Source: a virus (lineage: Duplodnaviria; Heunggongvirae; Uroviricota; Caudoviricetes). From it: a stretch of DNA of 26,886 nt. A model generated the notes under the pieces. That model was not told where the DNA came from. It did no database searches and saw only the letters and a program-made list of their open reading frames with translations. Every line of letters starts with the position of its first letter. The stretch's first letter is position 1. Where the stretch lies: IMG/VR virus record IMGVR_UViG_2737471860_000002, positions 1 through 26,886 of that record. One strand, 5' to 3'. A program made the position numbers and the translations under genes. This document shows, piece after piece, positions 9,613-19,152 of this stretch.

Positions 9613-11088
9613 TTAAAGTTTGAACTGAATCAGGCCTGCCAGCACACGCAGCTGGTTCACCAGATTCGGGTGGCAGATAAAGTTCAGGCGGTTTTTATCG
9701 CTGCTGTCGCGTGTCACCTGAAGCGTGTCCCTGTAATCGCTGAAGTTCTCCACAAGGCCCGCCGGGAGAAGTTCGGTCTGGCAGATATCCAGCAGCTCTG
9801 CGGTGCACAGCTTCGGCGTCATCACCGGCTGCCCCGCATCCAGCGAGTCCAGCACGTCATCATCCGCCAGCTTGTGGCGCGGATAACGGTTCGAGAAACG
9901 GTTTTTAATGATGTAACGGATACGGCCCAGCGTGGCGGGTGACTGCACATCTAGGTACGACACATCCGCATCACCGTACTGGTTAACCCGGTACATGGTG
10001 ATTTCTCGCTCGATACAGACGTTATCACCGGCGTCCACCATGTGTGTGGCAATGCCGTCATGCAGCAGCAGGTTACGTTCCGGCATATCCCAGCGAACAT
10101 TACGCGCAGGCGGCAGAATGCCGGTCAGAACCAGCGTCTGAAGCGGACGCGCCGGATCAATGGCGAGGTAATACGCTGCCGTTGCGCCGTATGACGCGGC
10201 CCACATCCACGCCGGGTGCGGTGACAGGTTGGTGCCGATACAGCTAATCAGCCAGTCATTGCGGGTTTCACCAAACGTGCCGGTTTCCCCGTGTGTGCCA
10301 CGAAACGCCGTCCACAGCTGCGCCTCCATCATTTTGAGCGGCCCCCAGCGGTTCAGCAGTTCATCACGCAGGGTGTTCAGGCTTTTCGTGTCGGTGAACG
10401 GGGCGATGATATCGGTAAACCACTCCGGGCCGATGGCCGCAACGGCGTCTGCCATTTCCGGTGTCCCGGTGCCGCCGGTAAACGCGGTTGCGATCACCTT
10501 CACACCTGCCGGGAAGGCTTCACCGGTGTAGTAGTTCAGGCGAACGTCGGCACCGTTGCCGGTGACGCCGTGCCAGTTCACGGTCAGCTCCACGGTATCT
10601 GTGGCATCATCCTTCACCGCAGCGGTCACCTGCGTGGCTGGCTTTTTCGTCACCGCATCAGCAATGGCTTTTGCAATGTTTTCCTTCGTAGCCCCGGCGA
10701 TCACGCCCACCTGAACGGAGACACCGTTAATCAGCAGTGCCACCGTTCCGGCTTCAGTCGCTGTACCCAGCACGGTCAGCGTGGCTTTTGCGGCAGCGCT
10801 AACAGGTGCGGAAACCGGCATTGCCCAGGTTTCCGTGTACGTGTTGGCACGACGCAGCATTTTGAGCATTTCAGCCAGCATCGACCCTTTGCCATAAAGC
10901 TGGTCTGCCTGGCTGTCACTGGTGATGCGGGTCAGTGACAGGGCGTCTGCGCTGCCGGACGATACCGCATGGCCCATGACCAGAATTTTTCGGCTTTGCG
11001 CGGATGCACCATCCAGCGCCTGTGAATTGTCGATATCGATCCAGACAAGCGGGACGCGGATATCATCAGGAATTGAACCCAGCGACAT
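9613..11088 (-). CDS. Tail sheath protein
   Basis: 491-aa ORF, first large gene of the tail module; sheath-tube-chaperone-tape measure order. Confidence 0.8.
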   Translation of the reverse strand: MSLGSIPDDIRVPLVWIDIDNSQALDGASAQSRKILVMGHAVSSGSADALSLTRITSDSQADQLYGKGSMLAEMLKMLRRANTYTETWAMPVSAPVSAAAKATLTVLGTATEAGTVALLINGVSVQVGVIAGATKENIAKAIADAVTKKPATQVTAAVKDDATDTVELTVNWHGVTGNGADVRLNYYTGEAFPAGVKVIATAFTGGTGTPEMADAVAAIGPEWFTDIIAPFTDTKSLNTLRDELLNRWGPLKMMEAQLWTAFRGTHGETGTFGETRNDWLISCIGTNLSPHPAWMWAASYGATAAYYLAIDPARPLQTLVLTGILPPARNVRWDMPERNLLLHDGIATHMVDAGDNVCIEREITMYRVNQYGDADVSYLDVQSPATLGRIRYIIKNRFSNRYPRHKLADDDVLDSLDAGQPVMTPKLCTAELLDICQTELLPAGLVENFSDYRDTLQVTRDSSDKNRLNFICHPNLVNQLRVLAGLIQFKL

Positions 11089-11288
11089 TATTTTTTCCCT
11101 CTGGTTTTGTTGTTATTTTTCGGAAGTGTGGTTATTTCCACATCTCCCTCGGCCTCACGGCGCAGCCAGTAAGCGCAGACGTCGAGACGTTCCCCTTCCG
11201 GGGATAAATGCGCGCCATCCGGTTTACGGACACGGACGCTTTCCCGCGCTGGCTTAATCAGTTTCTGTTCCATCGTCACCCCGTACAT
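11088..11288 (-). CDS. Small hypothetical virion-module protein (start may be the internal Met at 11273)
   Basis: 66-aa ORF with TAATG overlap onto the sheath start; basic C-terminus. Confidence 0.45.
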   Translation of the reverse strand: MYGVTMEQKLIKPARESVRVRKPDGAHLSPEGERLDVCAYWLRREAEGDVEITTLPKNNNKTRGKK

Positions 11289-11865
11289 GGATCACGTCGT
11301 TAATTTCAGTGTGTTCGCCGCAGCGCAGCGTTGCCCCGAGGCGCAGGAAGTCCGGGAGCGTGGCGAGATCAATCTCTTCATCCAGCCGGAATTCCTGCTC
11401 CCACGTCACCGCCCACATGGTGACGCCCAGCCCGTCGAGGCTGACGGAGTAAATGTTGTCTGCCCGCACATCAGCAGCCATGCGTTCAGCCCCCATGCCC
11501 CAGGTGGCATCCGACGACAGCAGACGTTTGATCACCTTTCCGGTCAGGACTTCACAGCGCACGTCGCGGGAGTACCCCCACGAATCCGTTGCCATGATGT
11601 AAGCCACCCAGGTGACCAGACCGGACAGCCCGCCACGCGGGTTGATATCCCGGACACGCAGGGCCGCGACACGGATACAGCCGGTGCGACCGGACAGATA
11701 GCGTTTCACTTCCTCCGGGCTGTTGAACTGGCCGATGTGACGCTCCACCACGCTGGCCCGGTCGGGGGTATCCCCCTGAAGTACTGTTTTCAGCCAGGCC
11801 ACAATGCGCTCTGCGGCCGCAACGGTGCTCCCCGGCGTGCGCAGTTCAGGGCGTTGTTCTGTCAT
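11254..11865 (-). CDS. Neck/tail-terminator candidate (Mu gp37/gp38-like)
   Basis: 203-aa ORF between head-completion genes and the sheath; 4-nt overlap with the upstream gene. Confidence 0.5.
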   Translation of the reverse strand: MTEQRPELRTPGSTVAAAERIVAWLKTVLQGDTPDRASVVERHIGQFNSPEEVKRYLSGRTGCIRVAALRVRDINPRGGLSGLVTWVAYIMATDSWGYSRDVRCEVLTGKVIKRLLSSDATWGMGAERMAADVRADNIYSVSLDGLGVTMWAVTWEQEFRLDEEIDLATLPDFLRLGATLRCGEHTEINDVIHVRGDDGTETD

Positions 11866-12407
11866 GGCAGAACCTCCTTCCAGAAATGACTGATAACCTG
11901 TTGCAGCTCCTGCTGGTTGGCAGAAGACAGCCCCAGAAATTCACGTTGTGGAATGTTCATCATGCGGTTATGTGCGCCGACGGTCTGCCAGACCGGATAT
12001 TTCAGCGCCCGCCCGAAACACTGCGAGATAAGTCGTTTGTGGGCGCTGACCGGCACACTGCCGGAAAAGCCGTCATTCATGATGCGGGCATAATCCAGCG
12101 GTGAACCGATACGCACCACGCGGTTTTCCACGATGTACTGGATACTCTCCAGCAGATGGCCTTCACCACGCAGCAGACTCTGGTTGCCGTGGCGGGTCTT
12201 TTTGTACCCGTCAGACCAGTCCGGCCAGCGTTCGCCACCCGGACTGGTTTTCTCATCGATGATGCGGCGGCGGGTCTGTGATTCCACCACCGCACCGATG
12301 CTCTCCAGCAGCTCTGCCTGCAATGAACCATCTGCCAGCTTTTCAACGGCGCGGCGGATATCCTCCAGACGCTGGTCACCGCTGACCTGTACAGAAATCC
12401 CCATCAC
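11862..12407 (-). CDS. Phage virion morphogenesis protein (Mu G / P2 S family-like)
   Basis: 181-aa ORF; internal SLLRGEGHLLESI motif resembles the virion-morphogenesis family signature. Assignment by pattern only. Confidence 0.45.
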   Translation of the reverse strand: MMGISVQVSGDQRLEDIRRAVEKLADGSLQAELLESIGAVVESQTRRRIIDEKTSPGGERWPDWSDGYKKTRHGNQSLLRGEGHLLESIQYIVENRVVRIGSPLDYARIMNDGFSGSVPVSAHKRLISQCFGRALKYPVWQTVGAHNRMMNIPQREFLGLSSANQQELQQVISHFWKEVLP

Positions 12408-12841
12408 AGCACCCCTTTCAGGTTGTTACGGGTGAACAGCCGGGCATTGGCACCCACCACAATGATTTTCCCGTGGTCGGTTTCTGCCGGGGTGGCATAC
12501 GTCGGCAGTCCCAGGTCACGGGTGCCGTTCGCCATCTCACGCAGGGTTTTAATGGCGTCGTCGTAGCGTTTCTGGATCAGCTCCGTGATTTGATTGTCAC
12601 GCTCTGACAACCAGTAAAACGCCAGCGATACCGCCACGCGTTGCAGCGGGCGCGGGATTTCCGTCACCCCCAGCGGCAGCTGGTAGCGGCGGGACAGAAA
12701 CGAATCAATTTCCGCTTCGGCATCACTGATGGCCTGACGGATTTTGTCTTCATCCAGCCCGTTGGTTTCCCGGTTAATCGCCATGTTCCAGACAAGATTG
12801 CCGTCCGCGCGTAACAGGTCTTCCTGCGTGATGTATCCCAT
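12404..12841 (-). CDS. Head-tail connector / head completion protein (Mu gp36-like)
   Basis: 145-aa ORF, 4-nt overlap downstream and 1-nt overlap upstream; position after the capsid gene. Confidence 0.55.
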   Translation of the reverse strand: MGYITQEDLLRADGNLVWNMAINRETNGLDEDKIRQAISDAEAEIDSFLSRRYQLPLGVTEIPRPLQRVAVSLAFYWLSERDNQITELIQKRYDDAIKTLREMANGTRDLGLPTYATPAETDHGKIIVVGANARLFTRNNLKGVL

Positions 12842-13152
12842 CAGCCTTTCTCCGCTTCCCGGACAATCAGATTCGGCTCTGCCATCAGGCGGGTGGCAAC
12901 CGCAGCGGTCACCGCCACATCCTCACCGGCATGAGACCAGAAACGGCCACAACGCCAGAACCCGCTTTCAGACACGGCCCGGACGTTCAGCCGGACAGGG
13001 GCGTCACCCTGTACAGCAACCGGGTCTTCAGCCGGACGTGGTTCATCCGCCTGGCCGTCAGCCACAATAACGTCTGCCAGCGGTGCCGGGTTTTCCTGTG
13101 CTGCGCTGTTCTTTGTGTTTTTCGTGCTTTTGGTTCCTGCTTTTTCACTCAT
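12841..13152 (-). CDS. Hypothetical protein downstream of major capsid (Mu gp35-like position)
   Basis: 103-aa acidic, Ala-rich ORF; first gene after the capsid-gene hairpin. Confidence 0.5.
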   Translation of the reverse strand: MSEKAGTKSTKNTKNSAAQENPAPLADVIVADGQADEPRPAEDPVAVQGDAPVRLNVRAVSESGFWRCGRFWSHAGEDVAVTAAVATRLMAEPNLIVREAEKG

Positions 13153-13170
13153 GGCTCTGCCTTTTAAAAG

Positions 13171-13206
13171 GCAGTTAAAAGGGCATTCACAGCACCTTTT
13201 AACTGC
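13171..13206 (-). terminator. Stable hairpin just downstream of the major capsid gene (12-bp stem, 12-nt loop); candidate partial terminator or mRNA stabiliser
   Basis: GCAGTTAAAAGG (13171-13182) and CCTTTTAACTGC (13195-13206) are exact reverse complements. An adjacent palindrome CTGCCTTTTAAAAGGCAG sits at 13157-13174. Confidence 0.45.
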
Positions 13207-13223
13207 GGTTTACGGATGACGGT

Positions 13224-14129
13224 TTATGCCGGGGTGGTGATGTACGGGCTGTCCACGATCTCCACATCCTTGTACCAGATGTTGGAATCGCCGCCGTTAA
13301 CCAGCATGGCGTCAATAATGAGCTTCGCGTCCGCACGGTTTTTCGGCCCCACCACAAGGGTGGTCGGGCGGATGCCCAGTGGTTCACCGTTGGTGCCCTT
13401 CATGCCCCGCAGTAACTCATTGGCTTTTTTGTAGTTCTCCACCGTCAGTGCCGCACGGGAACCGACGGCGGTCTGCCAGAAGCCGAAGCCTGCATTACAG
13501 CGACCGTCCACCCCGTACAGGAATTCGTTATTCTTGAAGGTGTGCTCGCTGTTCAGATCGTCCAGGGCTTCAAACTTAAAGGCGCGTCGCGTCTGCCAGA
13601 TAATGGGTTTCAGTACCTGCGACTCATCAATCAGGAACCACGGCTCACCCTTGTCTGATGCCGGGGTGCCGACAACGTTGCTGTACGTGCCGTCACCCAG
13701 CGGGTGGTCTTCATCAAAGAAGTTCTGGCCGTCAAAGCACAAAGTTTTGAATCCGGCACACAGCAGGGCGTAACACAGCTTGTCCGGGAACACGGCTGTC
13801 ATACGTCCATAGCGTTCAGCAGTAATGCTGTACTGACCAATCTGGTCATCTTCAATGTGTTCGCGCTTAACGCGAATGGAACTTTCCCAGAGTTTGTTGG
13901 TGATGGTGTAACCATAACCGTCCAGCGTTGCCAGCTGACGCTCACCGACCCATTCTTTGATGTCCGGTAAATCTTTCATCCAGCCGTAAGTGTTGGAGGC
14001 GGACGAACTCGGCACCTCAGAAGCAATGCGATTCCACTGCGGTTCGACACCACTCAGTCCACGGGTAAAGGCGGCGCTCAGGCAGGTGGTCAGTGCATGA
14101 AGGATTTCAGAACTGACAGTCTGTCCCAT
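13224..14129 (-). CDS. Major capsid protein (Mu gpT-like)
   Basis: 301-aa ORF immediately after the protease/scaffold gene (1-nt overlap); size and position match the Mu-type major head subunit. Confidence 0.75.
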   Translation of the reverse strand: MGQTVSSEILHALTTCLSAAFTRGLSGVEPQWNRIASEVPSSSASNTYGWMKDLPDIKEWVGERQLATLDGYGYTITNKLWESSIRVKREHIEDDQIGQYSITAERYGRMTAVFPDKLCYALLCAGFKTLCFDGQNFFDEDHPLGDGTYSNVVGTPASDKGEPWFLIDESQVLKPIIWQTRRAFKFEALDDLNSEHTFKNNEFLYGVDGRCNAGFGFWQTAVGSRAALTVENYKKANELLRGMKGTNGEPLGIRPTTLVVGPKNRADAKLIIDAMLVNGGDSNIWYKDVEIVDSPYITTPA

Positions 14130-15091
14130 TAGTTGTTCTCCTGTTTTGGTTTAGCGGCGAGGAACTCTTCCCCGGTAATACCCATGCTGCGACACATCGC
14201 CAGTTCGGCGTCGGTCAGTGTCTGCGCGGGTTTATCCTTGCCCTGGCTGGGCTTGTCGTTGTTCACCAGCGGCTGTGTACCTCTGGTGTATTCCGCAAAC
14301 TGTTTACGGCCTTCTTCCGTGCGACAGGTGGCAAGGAACATGTCACGGTTTGCCGGGGCCACTTTTCCGGCTTCGATGGCCGCATCCACAAGCGCTTCTG
14401 CTTCCTTCTCTTCAAGTTGCTGAAGGCGTTGTTCTGCGGTTTCGGCACGGTTCAGTGCCAGATTGTGGGTTTCCACCGGCACAAACTTCGTCAGGTCAGG
14501 TGTCTGTGCGCGGTTCAGCGCCACCTGTTCGTTCTCCTGAAGTTGTTTAATGGCGGCCACGGTATCGTCCACCGTGGCAGATTCAGCCAGCCCAAGCAGG
14601 CCGGTGATTTGCACAGGTACTGTCATCGGGTTTTTCTCCGTATTCAGTGCAGGAAAATCCAGGTTAGGTTTGTTGGTCAGCCCGACGCTGGACAGGCGTG
14701 TCACCACACCCTCCGCGTCATGGAAAAACGCCGGGCTGTAATAGCGGTAGCGGCGCTCGCTCAGCATCCAGCGGGCGGACTCACTCCAGGCAACACGGCC
14801 TTCAATGGTGCCGCTGTCCGTCACCCGCAGTTCTTCAACCCAGCCATACGCCGGAGCATCTTCACCACGCGGGCCTTTAATTTCGGTGGCGTGTTCAATG
14901 TCCACCGGAATTTTGATGTCGGACGAACGGGCAACCACCTCATGCGGATTGCGGTTAATCCACGTCCGGCCATCGCGCCCGGTAAACTCACCCGCAGGAA
15001 CGAGTTCAAACCATTCCGGCAGTTGAACAGGTGTCAGCTCAGGGATAGGTTCTGGCAGGGAAAAACACAGCGCCAGCAGTTCCGGTTGCAT
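14129..15091 (-). CDS. Head maturation protease with C-terminal scaffold domain (Mu gpI-like); candidate internal scaffold start at 14626
   Basis: 320-aa ORF; C-terminal half is coiled-coil-like. In-frame internal ATG at 14626 preceded by GGAG about 10 nt upstream. Confidence 0.7.
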   Translation of the reverse strand: MQPELLALCFSLPEPIPELTPVQLPEWFELVPAGEFTGRDGRTWINRNPHEVVARSSDIKIPVDIEHATEIKGPRGEDAPAYGWVEELRVTDSGTIEGRVAWSESARWMLSERRYRYYSPAFFHDAEGVVTRLSSVGLTNKPNLDFPALNTEKNPMTVPVQITGLLGLAESATVDDTVAAIKQLQENEQVALNRAQTPDLTKFVPVETHNLALNRAETAEQRLQQLEEKEAEALVDAAIEAGKVAPANRDMFLATCRTEEGRKQFAEYTRGTQPLVNNDKPSQGKDKPAQTLTDAELAMCRSMGITGEEFLAAKPKQENN

Positions 15092-15140
15092 GTCAGTCTC
15101 CGTCGTTTTGGGTTACCGACGGTCAGTATGCGGGAGGCAG

Positions 15141-15164
15141 AAAAAAAGCCGGATTTACCGGCTT
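15141..15164 (-). terminator. Intrinsic-terminator-like hairpin (7-bp stem AAGCCGG/CCGGCTT, 5-nt loop) followed by a U7 tract on the minus strand; copy A of a duplicated 38-bp element
   Basis: Stem 15146-15152 pairs with 15158-15164; the plus-strand A7 at 15141-15147 is the minus-strand T-run. A near-identical element occurs at 22840-22877. Confidence 0.55.
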
Positions 15165-15184
15165 CACTGAAAACAGGGAAATAC

Positions 15185-15227
15185 CCCTTCAAAACCCCTT
15201 CAAAAACGCCACAGCGCCTTCAAAAAC
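15185..15227. repeat. Three direct repeats of CCTTCAAAA(A) in the F-I intergenic region
   Basis: Read directly: ccccttcaaaa / ccccttcaaaaa / gccttcaaaaa within 43 bp. Confidence 0.6.
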
Positions 15228-15279
15228 GTCATGGCATACACTCACGCCATCAGAATAAAAAACGCGTTTCTGGTGCGTT

Positions 15280-16056
15280 TCAGGTGGGATTTACGGCGCT
15301 GTCAAATCGGGCCTGTTTTGTCGCCAGCTGGCGCGCCAGTTCCTGCTCACGGTTTATGCCGGGATTGTAGTTCCAGCCCGGATCAATCCCTTCCGGCACA
15401 TCTTCCTCTTCGCCCGTACGTTTGTTCACCCAGCGGACAGTTCTGATTTCCGGCGCTTCGGTGTGAATGGTGCCCTGTGCCGCCAGTTGCGCATATTCAC
15501 CACGGCTGACCTGACGGATGGTGCATTTGCATCCCCAGCCGTTAGGGGCAAAATGTGTCTGCCAGAACGGATGATCCACCGGCAGACACAGACGCGCCCA
15601 TTTCACATGCTCCGCCCGGTGCTCACGGGATGGCCCCAGCTCATAAATCAGATACGGCATGGCCCGCTTTGTCCGCTGAATGCGTTCCCACTGGCCCGCC
15701 GCGCGGGCGGTGCGCATGTTGGTGTCAAAAATCGTGCGGAGGCGGCGGTCGCTGCCCAACTGTACTGTGCGCGTTTCGCCCGTCAGCGGATCATCCATCT
15801 CCTGAACGCCCCACCATCCGCGTTTTATCAGCAGCGGTTGCAGCGCCTCCCGGAACTCGCTGAACGTCTGCCCGCTTTGCAGGGCGTCTTCCACAAGGGC
15901 TTTCACATCCGACAACAAATCCAGTTGCAGCATTTTTGCCACGGTGAAGCTGTTCCGGTGCTCTTCCCGCCATACATCCCGGTAATCAAAACCGGGGCGC
16001 AGCTTCTTCGCCTTCAGCCACGCCAGCGCCTCTTTCGGGATGAGGGTTTCACGCAT
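15280..16056 (-). CDS. Mu F-like head morphogenesis protein
   Basis: ORF track gives 15280..16113; I place the start at the Met at 16056 (MRETLIPKEA...), giving an 8-nt overlap with the portal stop. Position after the portal gene. Confidence 0.65.
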   Translation of the reverse strand: MRETLIPKEALAWLKAKKLRPGFDYRDVWREEHRNSFTVAKMLQLDLLSDVKALVEDALQSGQTFSEFREALQPLLIKRGWWGVQEMDDPLTGETRTVQLGSDRRLRTIFDTNMRTARAAGQWERIQRTKRAMPYLIYELGPSREHRAEHVKWARLCLPVDHPFWQTHFAPNGWGCKCTIRQVSRGEYAQLAAQGTIHTEAPEIRTVRWVNKRTGEEEDVPEGIDPGWNYNPGINREQELARQLATKQARFDSAVNPT

Positions 16057-17620
16057 GAGCAGCGTCTCCCAGCGCACGCGCCTTAAAGCACACCTCTGCC
16101 AGTTGCAGGGCAAAGTCGTCCGCGTTCAGCGTTTCCTGAAGCTCAGGCAGGCGTTTCAGAAAGTCATCAAAACTGTCGCATTCCTGCGCCAGTGTCAGCA
16201 CCGGGTTCGTGAACGCCTCGCCGGTTTTCTGCCAGTCACGCAGGGCATCATCCACCATCTGTGCCAGTTCGTCGGGGTGTTCCCGGTTCAGGGCGACGCG
16301 CTCGCGGTTCATCGCCATTTCACCCGGCATCCCGGCGGAAATCGGATGCAGAACATCAGCCCCTTCGTCCGGTTCAGCCAGGCCGAACCGGTCCCGCAGC
16401 TCCGATTCCTGAACCCGCATCCCCCGGTCAATCAGCGGCACCAGAGCATCTGTCAGCGCCTTCAGATCTTCTGCTTCACTGATACGCAGAACAACACGGG
16501 GGTAGTGCGCCTGTGGCCCGTAGTTGGCCTCGATATAGGGACGCACCAGATATTCATTCAGCGTGTTAGCCAGCTGTCGCGCGTCCCAGCGCACAATGTC
16601 CATGCGCACCTGATTGTGCACGTCCGCCTGTGAACGCGAACTGCCGTTATCCGTGGTCATGGTCTGCCCCAGCACAGCCTTACTGATTTGTGCATCACAC
16701 CATTCCGCCATTTCACGGAACAGTGCGCCGCCGTTATTCCGGCTGGCGGTTTCCTGCATCTCCAGTTGCATAGACTGCGGAATGGCACACCCTGCATCCG
16801 AGGCAATGGAGGCAATCGCATCAATCAGTACGCGGATTTGCTCCTCCGTGGCGTTGGGACCGTATTTCCCCACCGTAACCGGAATGCCGAATTTTTCCGC
16901 GAATGCCCACCAGTCACGCACGGTATAGGATTTCAGCATGTACATCACCGCCACCAGACGGGCCAGACCGTTACGCAGCGGCAGACCGGATTTCAGACGC
17001 GGCTGGTGAACAATGAATTTTCCCGGTGTCAGCGGTACGCCATCCACCGGTTCATCGTCAGTCAGCAGGCGGAACTGGCGCAGCGTGGGCTTTTCGGCTT
17101 TCAGGAAACGGGGATCAACCCACTCATAATCACGGGGCACCCAGTGGTTGTTGCGGGTGTTCCACAGAATTTCACAGACCGCCACGCCTTTTCCCAGCCC
17201 GTCGAGCAGATCAAACATCAGTTCGGGGATTTGCGGCGCGGCCATCAGCTCACGGATGGCATCCGCCAGCTGCACATCGGCATCGTCGTCACTGGCAGCC
17301 ACCACCACCGGCTCGATACCCGCCACCGTCAGCTTGCGGGTGCGCAGTACCGAGGCGTAATGCAAATCGCGTTCTTCCATCTCTTCGGCAAGGATAAAAA
17401 AATCACGCGTGATGCCGTCGGCGGCATTGCGCAGAATGCCTGCCAGCCTGCCGGGATTCAGCCCGGAAGCAATGCTGATGCCCGGCGAGGCCGAGCGCAC
17501 GCCAGCCTGACGCGGACGGGCCTGTATTTCATCGAGCGTCTCTTTTTTGAGCCTGTCTTCCTCACCGGTTGCCGGGTTCAGCAGACGGCGAACGGCCCCG
17601 GCCAGTTGTTTCAGGTTCAC
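16049..17620 (-). CDS. Portal protein (Mu gpH-like)
   Basis: 523-aa ORF directly after the large terminase (ATGA overlap); size and position typical. Confidence 0.75.
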   Translation of the reverse strand: MNLKQLAGAVRRLLNPATGEEDRLKKETLDEIQARPRQAGVRSASPGISIASGLNPGRLAGILRNAADGITRDFFILAEEMEERDLHYASVLRTRKLTVAGIEPVVVAASDDDADVQLADAIRELMAAPQIPELMFDLLDGLGKGVAVCEILWNTRNNHWVPRDYEWVDPRFLKAEKPTLRQFRLLTDDEPVDGVPLTPGKFIVHQPRLKSGLPLRNGLARLVAVMYMLKSYTVRDWWAFAEKFGIPVTVGKYGPNATEEQIRVLIDAIASIASDAGCAIPQSMQLEMQETASRNNGGALFREMAEWCDAQISKAVLGQTMTTDNGSSRSQADVHNQVRMDIVRWDARQLANTLNEYLVRPYIEANYGPQAHYPRVVLRISEAEDLKALTDALVPLIDRGMRVQESELRDRFGLAEPDEGADVLHPISAGMPGEMAMNRERVALNREHPDELAQMVDDALRDWQKTGEAFTNPVLTLAQECDSFDDFLKRLPELQETLNADDFALQLAEVCFKARALGDAAHA

Positions 17621-19152
17621 AGTAAACCTCCCTCATTTTTCAGGCCGCGTGTCAGCTTCATCTGGCGGCGCGCGTTGCGTTCTTCCGGTTTTGCCGGGCG
17701 GTTCAGGCGGTGCAGCTCGTAACGGTGGCAGTCATCTTTACTGGCAAGGAAGCCCAGGAAAATGGCCACAGCGGCGTCGCCGTGACGCTTGCGGCCATCG
17801 CTGCCTTTAGTACGGGTATCGTCAATGCCGGGAACGCCACGCAGTAACTGAATGGCCCCGAGGTCATTGATCACGTCTTCATGCTTCGGAAGGATCAGCT
17901 CATCATCTTCAAATGCTGCACGGAAACGGGGCATGTTTTCGCGGTAGAACGCCACGGACAGCATCACCTGTTCCACTTCGTCGCCGTACCGCTCCGCCGC
18001 CTGTTCTGCCAGATACTGACCATTCCCCCGCGCATCCATTTTGATACCGTCACGACGGGGCAGACGATCGCAAAGCCAGAACAGCACCTGCTCCTGCTGT
18101 TTAAACGGCACATTGCCAAGCTCAACCAGGAACGGCACCTCGCGGGTGGTGTCATTGTTCACCGTCACCGGGGCCAGTACGGTCAGGTCACCCGAACGCG
18201 CAAAGTCTTCCCCCAGACAGTGGCGCAGGTTCTTCGGGAGTTTTTCCAGTTCAGGGCGCACCACTGTTTCCAGCCATTCCCGGATATCTGCCCGGCGCTG
18301 GCTTTCCGTCAGTGCGTTAAATTCCGGTGTGCCGGTAAAGCGCAACACTTTCCCGGTGCCACGGGCCGCACGTTCACGCAGTGAGCGGGGGATATACGTG
18401 CCGCCGCCGTTTTTCGGGACGCAGTAATATTCCTCCAGTGCGTCTTCGCGGGTGGCGGTATTTCGCAGCAGGCCTTCTTTCCATTCCGCCTCGGCTTCCG
18501 GTGACCACACCATGCCGCGCACCTGACAGATACGCCGGTACAGCCCGTCATTGCAGGCGTCGTCCAGCGTGATGGTGTGAATGCTGTAATCTTTTTTGCC
18601 CGCGCGGCTTTCCTGAATCAGCTGGTTAAACAGGTTGTCCACGCCGTCATGGGTGGAAATAAGGCGAATTTTGCCGCCCCATGTTTTCAGCGGCAGCACA
18701 GCCTTCAGCAGCTCGTCCAGTTTTTCATGGAACGCGGCTTCGTCGATGGTGACATTCCCCTGCATCCCGCGAATGTTGCTCGGGTTGCTGGACAGTGCCT
18801 TGACCTTAAAACCGCTGGCGAAGTACACGACGAACGTCAGAATGGCCTTGTCTTCGTCGGTGATCACTTCCTCGCAGATTTCTTCCGCTGCCGCATTAAA
18901 CGCTTTCGCCCACATCGCCACGGCGTCGATAAATTCGCGGGCCATCTCCTTATTCGAACCGATATAAAAGTGATCGCGCCCGCCGTCTTCCTTCTTCAGC
19001 GATGCCGTCAGTGCCGCATCTGCCGCCTCCGCCCAGGTTAAACCGGTACGGCGGGATTTCTCTGCAATTTTCAGGTCGGCATCATCCGCCACCCAGCGTT
19101 TCTGATACGGCAGCAGGACATCGTATTCACTGAATGTGTTCATCCTGGTCAT
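17617..19152 (-). CDS. Terminase large subunit
   Basis: 511-aa ORF after the small terminase (4-nt overlap); N-terminal Walker-A-like KSRRTGLT and acidic C-terminal nuclease-like region. Confidence 0.75.
   Translation of the reverse strand: MTRMNTFSEYDVLLPYQKRWVADDADLKIAEKSRRTGLTWAEAADAALTASLKKEDGGRDHFYIGSNKEMAREFIDAVAMWAKAFNAAAEEICEEVITDEDKAILTFVVYFASGFKVKALSSNPSNIRGMQGNVTIDEAAFHEKLDELLKAVLPLKTWGGKIRLISTHDGVDNLFNQLIQESRAGKKDYSIHTITLDDACNDGLYRRICQVRGMVWSPEAEAEWKEGLLRNTATREDALEEYYCVPKNGGGTYIPRSLRERAARGTGKVLRFTGTPEFNALTESQRRADIREWLETVVRPELEKLPKNLRHCLGEDFARSGDLTVLAPVTVNNDTTREVPFLVELGNVPFKQQEQVLFWLCDRLPRRDGIKMDARGNGQYLAEQAAERYGDEVEQVMLSVAFYRENMPRFRAAFEDDELILPKHEDVINDLGAIQLLRGVPGIDDTRTKGSDGRKRHGDAAVAIFLGFLASKDDCHRYELHRLNRPAKPEERNARRQMKLTRGLKNEGGLL

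Follow-up and report, generated by a model that had tools for sequence, protein, structure and literature searches.

Why does a late operon whose gene junctions overlap or abut leave 71 nt between its major capsid gene and the next gene, and what is the hairpin in that gap for? The window (the whole stretch of DNA analysed, 26,886 nt) is the late region of a Mu-like prophage with every gene on the minus strand, and the gap at 13153-13223 is one of very few in it. The original prediction placed a perfect 12-bp inverted repeat (13171-13206) and an adjoining palindrome in a 71-nt gap after the capsid stop codon, and proposed that structures placed in this way commonly work as partial terminators or as stabilisers of RNA, lifting capsid expression above that of the genes downstream. 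The length of the gap and the repeat, with its two arms, were both confirmed. All genes there run on the minus strand, and the gap coordinates make sense solely on that strand, where the sequence between the capsid stop and the following ATG, both included, reads TAA, ACCGTCATCCGTAAACC, GCAGTTAAAAGG, u, GC, ugugaau, GC, CCTTTTAACTGC, CTTTTAAAAGGCAGAGCC, ATG. The features of the gap and the genes around it are listed in Table 1.

Table 1. Positions of the hairpin (H1), the palindrome (H2), and the neighbouring genes in the window, in order of transcription.
Feature	Position	Strand	Sense sequence	Basis or match
Mu F-like gene	15280..16113	minus		
gpI protease/scaffold gene	14129..15091	minus		
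gpT major capsid gene, 301 aa	13224..14129	minus		PF10124 Mu-like_gpT, E=1.2e-111, full length
gpT stop codon	13226-13224	minus	TAA	ORF list
Gap from gpT to next ORF, 71 nt	13153-13223	minus		sequence and ORF list
Spacer from stop codon to H1, 17 nt	13207..13223	minus	ACCGTCATCCGTAAACC	
H1 5' arm	13195..13206	minus	GCAGTTAAAAGG	pairing probability ~1
H1 apical part (bulge, two G-C pairs, loop)	13183..13194	minus		MFE and centroid structures
H1 3' arm	13171..13182	minus	CCTTTTAACTGC	
C + U4 tract after the stem	13166..13170	minus	CUUUU, then AAAA	sequence
Palindrome H2, 18 nt, perfect	13157..13174	minus	CTGCCTTTTAAAAGGCAG	
Likely Shine-Dalgarno, 7 nt before ATG	13160..13163	minus	AAGG	read from sequence
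103-aa ORF	12841..13152	minus		phrog_10420, E=3e-52, unknown function
gp36-type head-tail adaptor gene	12404..12841	minus		PF07030; phrog_195 head-tail adaptor

The 103-aa ORF holds the position of Mu gene 35, while BLASTP detected no similarity between its product and Mu gp35 and a Pfam search found no domain in it; the N-terminal third is rich in Lys, Thr, Ala, and Pro and has a low-complexity look. It is followed by the gp36-type adaptor gene, a neck protein gene and, further on, the sheath gene. PHROG matches indicate that the genes 3' of the hairpin code for low-copy connector and neck proteins, the gp36-type adaptor being the first low-copy connector gene transcribed through the hairpin.

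Past the 12 bp of the perfect repeat, H1 gains two G-C pairs (13193-13192 with 13184-13183) beyond a bulged U at 13194 and is closed by a 7-nt loop, UGUGAAU (13191-13185). The stem thus has at most 14 bp with the bulge, plus an outer 4-bp extension across a 2x2 internal loop, and its middle is AU-rich. Folding of the sense strand of the gap, which had been suggested as a check, gave -22.3 kcal/mol (z = -3.55 against dinucleotide shuffles), an energy equalled in one of 200 shuffles. H1 alone folds with -19.1 kcal/mol, and its probability of formation in the ensemble is close to 1. Ranked by raw 50-nt folding energy, H1 comes merely about 340th to 390th of 8946 windows, but raw energy is a poor yardstick here because the genome has a GC content of 55% and the gap 46.5%. 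Perfect stems were counted against composition-preserving shuffles in place of raw sliding-window energy. By this measure, H1 stands alone: no other perfect inverted repeat of 12 bp or more with a loop no longer than 14 nt occurs in the window, where 60 shuffles that preserve local composition gave 0.03 on average. The hairpin is beyond chance.

We also considered a repeated extragenic palindrome or mobile element and rejected it: the H1 arm sequence has no second copy in the window, and its one match with two mismatches elsewhere in the window is within chance expectation. In an Rfam search at a permissive threshold, the gap overlapped no family above its gathering threshold; the best overlaps, Flavo-1 (18.4 bits, threshold 42) and mir-4742 (16.7 bits, threshold 85), are at chance level.

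In the tail region just one more gap of appreciable size (8764-8849, minus strand) is present, between a 131-aa ORF and a 597-aa tape-measure-like ORF. It is spanned in another frame by a 69-aa ORF (8750..8959), which suggests a frameshift-extended form of the tail assembly chaperone. At 8791-8819 there is a 12-bp hairpin, GGAACAGCTACC/GGCAGCTGTTCC, whose one mismatch on the sense strand would be a G·T wobble on the plus strand.

Conservation of the stem among relatives

The close relatives compared came from 48 complete genomes of E. coli (DNA identity 93-97%), 13 loci in other bacterial genomes, and 70 viral contigs. With capsid proteins at least 69% identical there were 82 loci, representing 39 distinct gap sequences downstream of T, and a hairpin is found at the same place in all 39. 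In 38 of these the helix is gapless and 8-14 bp long (median 12), and in the 39th (L070) an 8+4-bp helix is broken by an internal loop. At least four versions of the helix occur: GCAGTTAAAAGG in this window and its E. coli relatives, GTTACAGCGGG in Klebsiella, Raoultella, Kluyvera, and Pluralibacter, CTTTATCGGGTG in Serratia, and TTTATCGGGCGT in Brenneria. The window-type stem is invariant over nine distinct sequences except in L026 and L027, where the two outermost pairs are lost, the third becomes G·U, and 10 pairs are left. All other changes of the window type, both substitutions and indels of 5-10 nt, are confined to the bulge, the loop, and the upstream spacer, and among close relatives every substitution falls in the bulge or loop of H1.

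The spacer at 13207-13223 is prone to indels. Relatives carry insertions of 5, 7, and 10 nt built from CCGTAA(A/T)C-like units (L003, L004, L020, L025, L035), and the spacer of the window itself can be written TAAACCG-TCATCCG-TAAACCG. These repeats suggest slippage or duplication events; relative to Mu, the outer GCAG arm seems itself to stem from an insertion of this kind. One of these relatives, L003, is a prophage-region copy on a 136-kb E. coli plasmid (pCFSAN004178P_01, NZ_CP012497.1), and the chromosome of the same strain has near-identical copies of the Mu-like region at two places, consistent with transposition of a Mu-like element.

RNAalifold returned no structure for the mixed alignment of 39 sequences. 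MAFFT had set the sequence types in different registers, so the mixed alignment was abandoned; instead, each hairpin was scored in its own register and separate alignments were made per stem type. Within the stem types other than that of the window we found compensatory series: GCGGGC/GCCCGC to GCGGGC/GCCTGC (G·U) to GCAGGC/GCCTGC (A-U), GTTACAG/CTGTAAC to GTTAAAG/CTTTAAC, and TTTATCGGG/CCCGATAAA to TTTAGCGGG/CCCGCTAAA. In each of two sub-alignments three pairs have changed on both sides, and G·U intermediates are present. The covariation scores were matched by 0 of 500 and 2 of 500 column shuffles and were above all controls in which the partner was slid. The 21 distinct stems together hold 238 Watson-Crick pairs and 11 G·U pairs; A·C mismatches number 3, only one of them clearly inside a stem, and mismatches of other kinds number 2. 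As a G·U pair on the sense strand is an A·C mismatch on the other strand, this asymmetry points to the sense-strand RNA as the selected object. Selection thus appears to act on the sense-strand RNA helix, and not on a DNA palindrome or an antisense RNA.

The same counts bear on the possibility that the element works as DNA, either as a palindrome bound by a protein (a Mu C-type activator or a nucleoid protein) or as a promoter. The gap does hold two overlapping palindromes with repeated TTAAAAGG/CCTTTTAA units, and the late activator C of Mu binds dyad-symmetric sites (PMC2582627). However, a protein site should be conserved, while the arms are wholly different between close relatives, and what is kept is pairing of the RNA type (11 G·U against 3 A·C on the sense strand). 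A promoter scan of the gap (13153-13223) showed no promoter-like site, and the late promoters of Mu are four, Plys, PI, PP, and Pmom, none of which lies between T and gene 35 (PMC2582627). We consider a DNA-level element highly improbable. It should also be noted that the sole sigma-70-like consensus match between 9 and 18 kb (11087-11116, minus strand, ATAACA-18-AATAAT) has its end right at the start codon of the sheath gene; as the scan gave this one match compared to 3.2 in shuffles, we do not take it as evidence of a promoter.

The palindrome and the downstream ribosome-binding region

The palindrome that had been described as adjoining the repeat does exist, but it is not separate from H1: the 5' half of H2 shares 4 nt (CTGC) with the H1 3' arm, and its 3' half contains the likely Shine-Dalgarno sequence. 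H2 and the complete H1 are mutually exclusive, and in ensemble folding H2 was seen only if the H1 5' arm was blocked. A third pairing, H3, joins the H1 3' arm to the Shine-Dalgarno region. The AAGG of the window aligns with the GAGGA of relatives, and the H2 core, CCTTTTAAAAGG, is the counterpart of their conserved CCTTTAAAGAGG ribosome-binding region. Furthermore, H2 is restricted to the window type, with a mismatch in L026 and L027 and an altered centre in L005. In our reading, the palindrome is mainly a ribosome-binding region that by chance is self-complementary.

This arrangement raises the alternative that H1 controls or insulates the translation start of the 103-aa ORF. In one version, folding of H1 as opposed to H2 or H3, which sequester the Shine-Dalgarno sequence, sets the output of the 103-aa protein; in the other, H1 simply keeps coding RNA further upstream from pairing with the ribosome-binding site. 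Across relatives the hairpin keeps a nearly constant distance to the next start codon (17-24 nt), while its distance from the capsid stop codon ranges from 14 to 31 nt; this would suit a role in translation just as well, although constant spacing may merely reflect the conserved ribosome-binding region. The presence of AAGG within both H2 and H3, and the release of H2 by blocking of the H1 5' arm, would suit a switch, and in many relatives a CCNCC stretch could pair with the GAGGAUGG Shine-Dalgarno region. Against a switch, H1 at -19.1 kcal/mol is far stabler than H2 (-8.5 kcal/mol) or H3 (-4.5 kcal/mol) and is fully formed in the ensemble, the pairing of H2 is specific to the window type, and no trigger is evident. 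A ribosome at the capsid stop codon, 17 nt from H1, should leave the hairpin closed, an argument that follows from the known ribosome footprint. With H1 the stabler by 10 kcal/mol and the stop codon at that distance, we judged a ribosome-driven H1/H2 switch unlikely, and control of the translation start in general is in our opinion an unlikely main role of the hairpin.

Terminator features and the Mu/D108 counterpart

H1 has the stem-loop expected of an intrinsic terminator, stable, with 12+2 bp, on the transcribed strand and in the correct orientation. Its tail, CUUUUAAAA, contains only 4 U, fewer than the approximately five or more in 8 nt that characterise terminators, and a consensus terminator scan did not call the site of the window hairpin. 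Tail scores were calculated with the d'Aubenton-Carafa formula. Five reference terminators scored 4.3-6.3, and the hairpins after the capsid gene scored 4.57 in L084, 4.18 in Mu (inner hairpin), 3.98 in SuMu, 3.04 in this window, 1.5-2.7 in the Serratia and Brenneria types, and 1.5-1.9 in the Klebsiella type. The Klebsiella, Serratia, and Brenneria versions keep the hairpin and have no U-tract. At best, then, the window hairpin would be a weak terminator. With a U-tract that is weak here (4 U) and absent from sister types, classical termination would be leaky at best, and it cannot be the conserved activity given that sister types have no U-tract at all. In addition, the sheath, tube, and baseplate genes lie downstream with no convincing promoter between, so most transcription must read through.

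The scan did call a canonical terminator-like hairpin elsewhere in the window (GAAGCCGG-taaat-CCGGCTT followed by U7, 15165-15145, minus strand), which indicates that this phage uses textbook terminators at other positions. The called hairpin lies in a 188-nt gap (15092-15279, minus strand) that separates the F-like gene from the gene for the gpI protease, downstream of three direct repeats, (C)GTTTT(T)GAAGG, at 15180-15235. We take the position of this gap to match the Mu G-I intergenic region, with the end of the lys transcript and the PI promoter. The Mu record annotates a gyrase cut site in that region.

After gene T, Mu and D108 read TAA CCGTCA TTAAAAGGCGGT tcag ACCGCCTTTTAA CCTGATTTAAAGGAAAAGGAGG. 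The D108 RefSeq record (NC_013594, 20117-20137) labels GGCGGTTCAGACCGCCTTTTA a rho-independent terminator, an annotation that is itself a prediction. While the capsid proteins of the window and Mu/D108 are only 38% identical, the gap aligns in blocks (a GTAA-CCG lead-in, TTAAAAGG, CCTTTTAAC, and TTTAAA), and this block-by-block agreement shows the window hairpin to be homologous to, though diverged from, the one that Mu and D108 have between T and gene 35. In both, the hairpin follows the gpT stop codon directly and precedes the first head-completion gene, with a TAA-CCGTCA lead-in, TTAAAAGG...CCTTTTAA arms, a stem of approximately 12 bp with a U4 run, and TTTAAAGG downstream before the Shine-Dalgarno sequence. 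The two differ in the core. Mu and D108 have a GC-rich core, GGCGGT tcag ACCGCC, followed immediately by UUUU, which makes their hairpin fairly canonical in shape for a terminator. The window core is cut to four G-C pairs, interrupted by a bulge and closed by a 7-nt loop, so that no GC-rich 6-bp core stands directly before UUUU; an insertion of approximately 14 nt supplies the outer GCAG/CTGC pairs. Accordingly different are the energies of the cores, only -2.3 kcal/mol for GGUGC...GCCC in the window compared to -9.2 kcal/mol in Mu.

More distant Mu-like phages vary more widely. L084 (capsid 45% identical to that of the window) has a textbook intrinsic terminator after its capsid gene, with a GC stem and U6 (~2395-2430), and SuMu (L093, capsid 40% identical) has GGGTGGG...CCCACCC and then TTTAT at the same place (2133-2160). 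RS1 has an 11-bp GC palindrome at this position and a Vibrio phage an 8-bp stem without a U-tract; a U-tract is likewise missing after the GC-rich stems of L019, L085, and L089, the hairpin of MP22 is no more than weak, and JBD25, L087, and L088 have neither gap nor hairpin. These comparisons indicate that the position of the hairpin is conserved among Mu-like phages and its terminator character is not. What is mildly new is that the RNA helix is under selection even where the feature that makes a terminator is absent. As the helix is conserved across the clade and the U-tract is not, the shared function would depend on the hairpin and be independent of termination.

Loss of the terminator features could also mean that the hairpin is an inherited remnant with little present function, in which case the GC-rich core and the U-tract of a Mu-type ancestral terminator would have been lost, with the palindrome lingering through slow decay or replication slippage. 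The Mu core GGCGGU/ACCGCC is indeed degraded to GG-U-GC/GC-CC, the outer arm derives from the ~14-nt insertion, the spacer is prone to indels and duplications, and some Mu-like phages do with a weak hairpin (MP22) or none (JBD25, L087, L088). Simple decay does not, however, account for the compensatory changes and the strong excess of G·U over A·C, which show that pairing is selected in sister lineages. Nor would it be expected to leave the window-type stem invariant in nine sequences bar L026 and L027 while bulge, loop, and spacer vary, and four unrelated stem sequences at one position are hard to obtain without selection. We therefore regard a functionless remnant as quite unlikely.

A stem-loop that may favour capsid mRNA

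The reading that we prefer, and hold to be somewhat better than an even chance, is that a stem-loop in the late mRNA defines or protects the 3' ends of capsid mRNA and in this way tunes the expression of the capsid gene relative to the genes downstream. The stem-loop would form in the sense (minus-strand) late mRNA just past the capsid gene and would set or shield the 3' ends of the upstream protease/scaffold-capsid message. In part, H1 may be a leaky intrinsic terminator, its 12+2-bp stem being followed by CUUUU; mainly, it would be a barrier to 3'-to-5' exonucleases after read-through transcripts have been cut in the AU-rich flank. Most polymerases would still pass, sheath and tube genes being downstream, and the capsid message would outlast or outnumber that of the genes for head completion and neck, whose products are of low copy. 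In the variants of Mu and the window, leaky termination would come on top of this. Here we infer every functional step, that is termination, stabilisation, and the effect on the expression ratio.

Several observations make such a device plausible. A conserved sense-strand RNA helix occupies the intercistronic gap between the capsid gene and the connector genes, as would be expected of a stabilising stem-loop, and a device that favours capsid mRNA makes sense where the downstream genes encode low-copy connector and neck proteins. Across the relatives compared, a stabiliser appears to fit the data better than a terminator does, and by analogy with known stem-loops a 3'-exonuclease block is the simplest candidate for the shared function. 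The role first proposed for the structure holds in part: it agrees with the position of the hairpin, the transcribed strand, its conservation, and the D108 homologue annotated as a terminator; the terminator half fared poorly, given 4 U, a site left uncalled by the scan, and a tail score of 3.04. In the literature on Mu-like phages we found no transcript 3'-end, half-life, or expression data for homologues of the hairpin, and the Mu-related work that we found consisted of computational terminator predictions or promoter studies only.

Two further readings stand beside this one. The first is that the element is an RNA processing site, cut by RNase E in the UUUAAA flank or by RNase III in the stem, without termination; the cut would leave a stable capsid mRNA on one side and a downstream mRNA of lower stability on the other. 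An AU-rich single-stranded flank, UUUAAA/UUUUAAAA, adjoins the stem in all types, Mu included, and most relatives keep the hairpin without the U-tract. The conservation of the flank has a simpler explanation, since it overlaps the ribosome-binding region. Typical RNase III substrates extend over about two helical turns, and the stem of 12-14 bp is shorter than this and does not provide the roughly 20 bp or more of near-continuous double-stranded RNA. We consider processing as such very doubtful, and it overlaps the preferred explanation, from which it differs only in how the 3' end is made. The second is that the hairpin is a U-tract-independent cis-RNA module, and not a terminator, that sets capsid-to-connector stoichiometry in Mu-like late operons. 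Such a conserved module could be a site recognised or processed by a host RNase or a phage protein, and in the variant of this phage it could be a three-way switch among H1, H2, and H3, which share CCUUUUAA/UUAAAAGG, that gates translation of the 103-aa ORF. In this specific form the proposal is quite improbable.

The preferred reading, a stem-loop that protects capsid mRNA, has counterparts in several systems, and the element belongs to the known Mu-type hairpins after T and, more broadly, to the stem-loops found after capsid genes. In T7 and LUZ100, a terminator directly after the capsid gene limits transcription of later genes and raises capsid expression (PMC10134795), and inefficient or leaky phage terminators are known to balance expression (PMC9163698). 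The window hairpin resembles T7 T-phi (after gene 10) and its LUZ100 counterpart in being a stem-loop directly 3' of the major capsid gene. The differences are that T-phi works with a phage RNA polymerase, a long U-tract (tail score 5.15), and a dedicated capsid promoter, whereas the window has the host polymerase, no local promoter, and a U-tract of only 4 nt. In phiX174, partial terminators have been mapped experimentally after J, F, G, and H. These leaky sites likewise follow structural genes, including that for capsid protein F, and yield nested, graded mRNAs, but phiX174 belongs to another phage class and the sequences are unrelated. The malE-malF REP, Rhodobacter puf, and E. coli papBA systems have intercistronic stem-loops that stabilise upstream 3' ends, with measured mRNA half-lives. 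Like the window hairpin, these stand in sense RNA after a gene whose product is needed in excess, and they block exonucleases without a U-tract. Unlike REP, which is repeated genome-wide, the window hairpin is single-copy in the window.

If confirmed, this role would explain how a Mu-like phage with a single long and tightly packed late operon obtains hundreds of capsid subunits, but connector proteins in no more than about a dozen copies, from one promoter. The result would open no new field, since hairpins that follow capsid genes are well known in phages. It does bear on annotation: rho-independent terminator labels at the post-capsid position probably misname the conserved activity. For annotation pipelines and for phage engineering, including Mu-based tools, the hairpin would be a short cis element that should not be casually deleted.

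A separate point of annotation concerns the 203-aa protein encoded at 11254-11865 (minus strand), which matches phrog_490, labelled 'portal protein'; RefSeq labels Mu gp37 (Mup37, L096) as portal likewise. A portal role is implausible for a protein of this size encoded after the adaptor and neck genes, and the label is probably a propagated mislabel. The portal candidate would be one of the upstream ORFs of approximately 510-520 aa, at 16049..17620 or 17617..19152.
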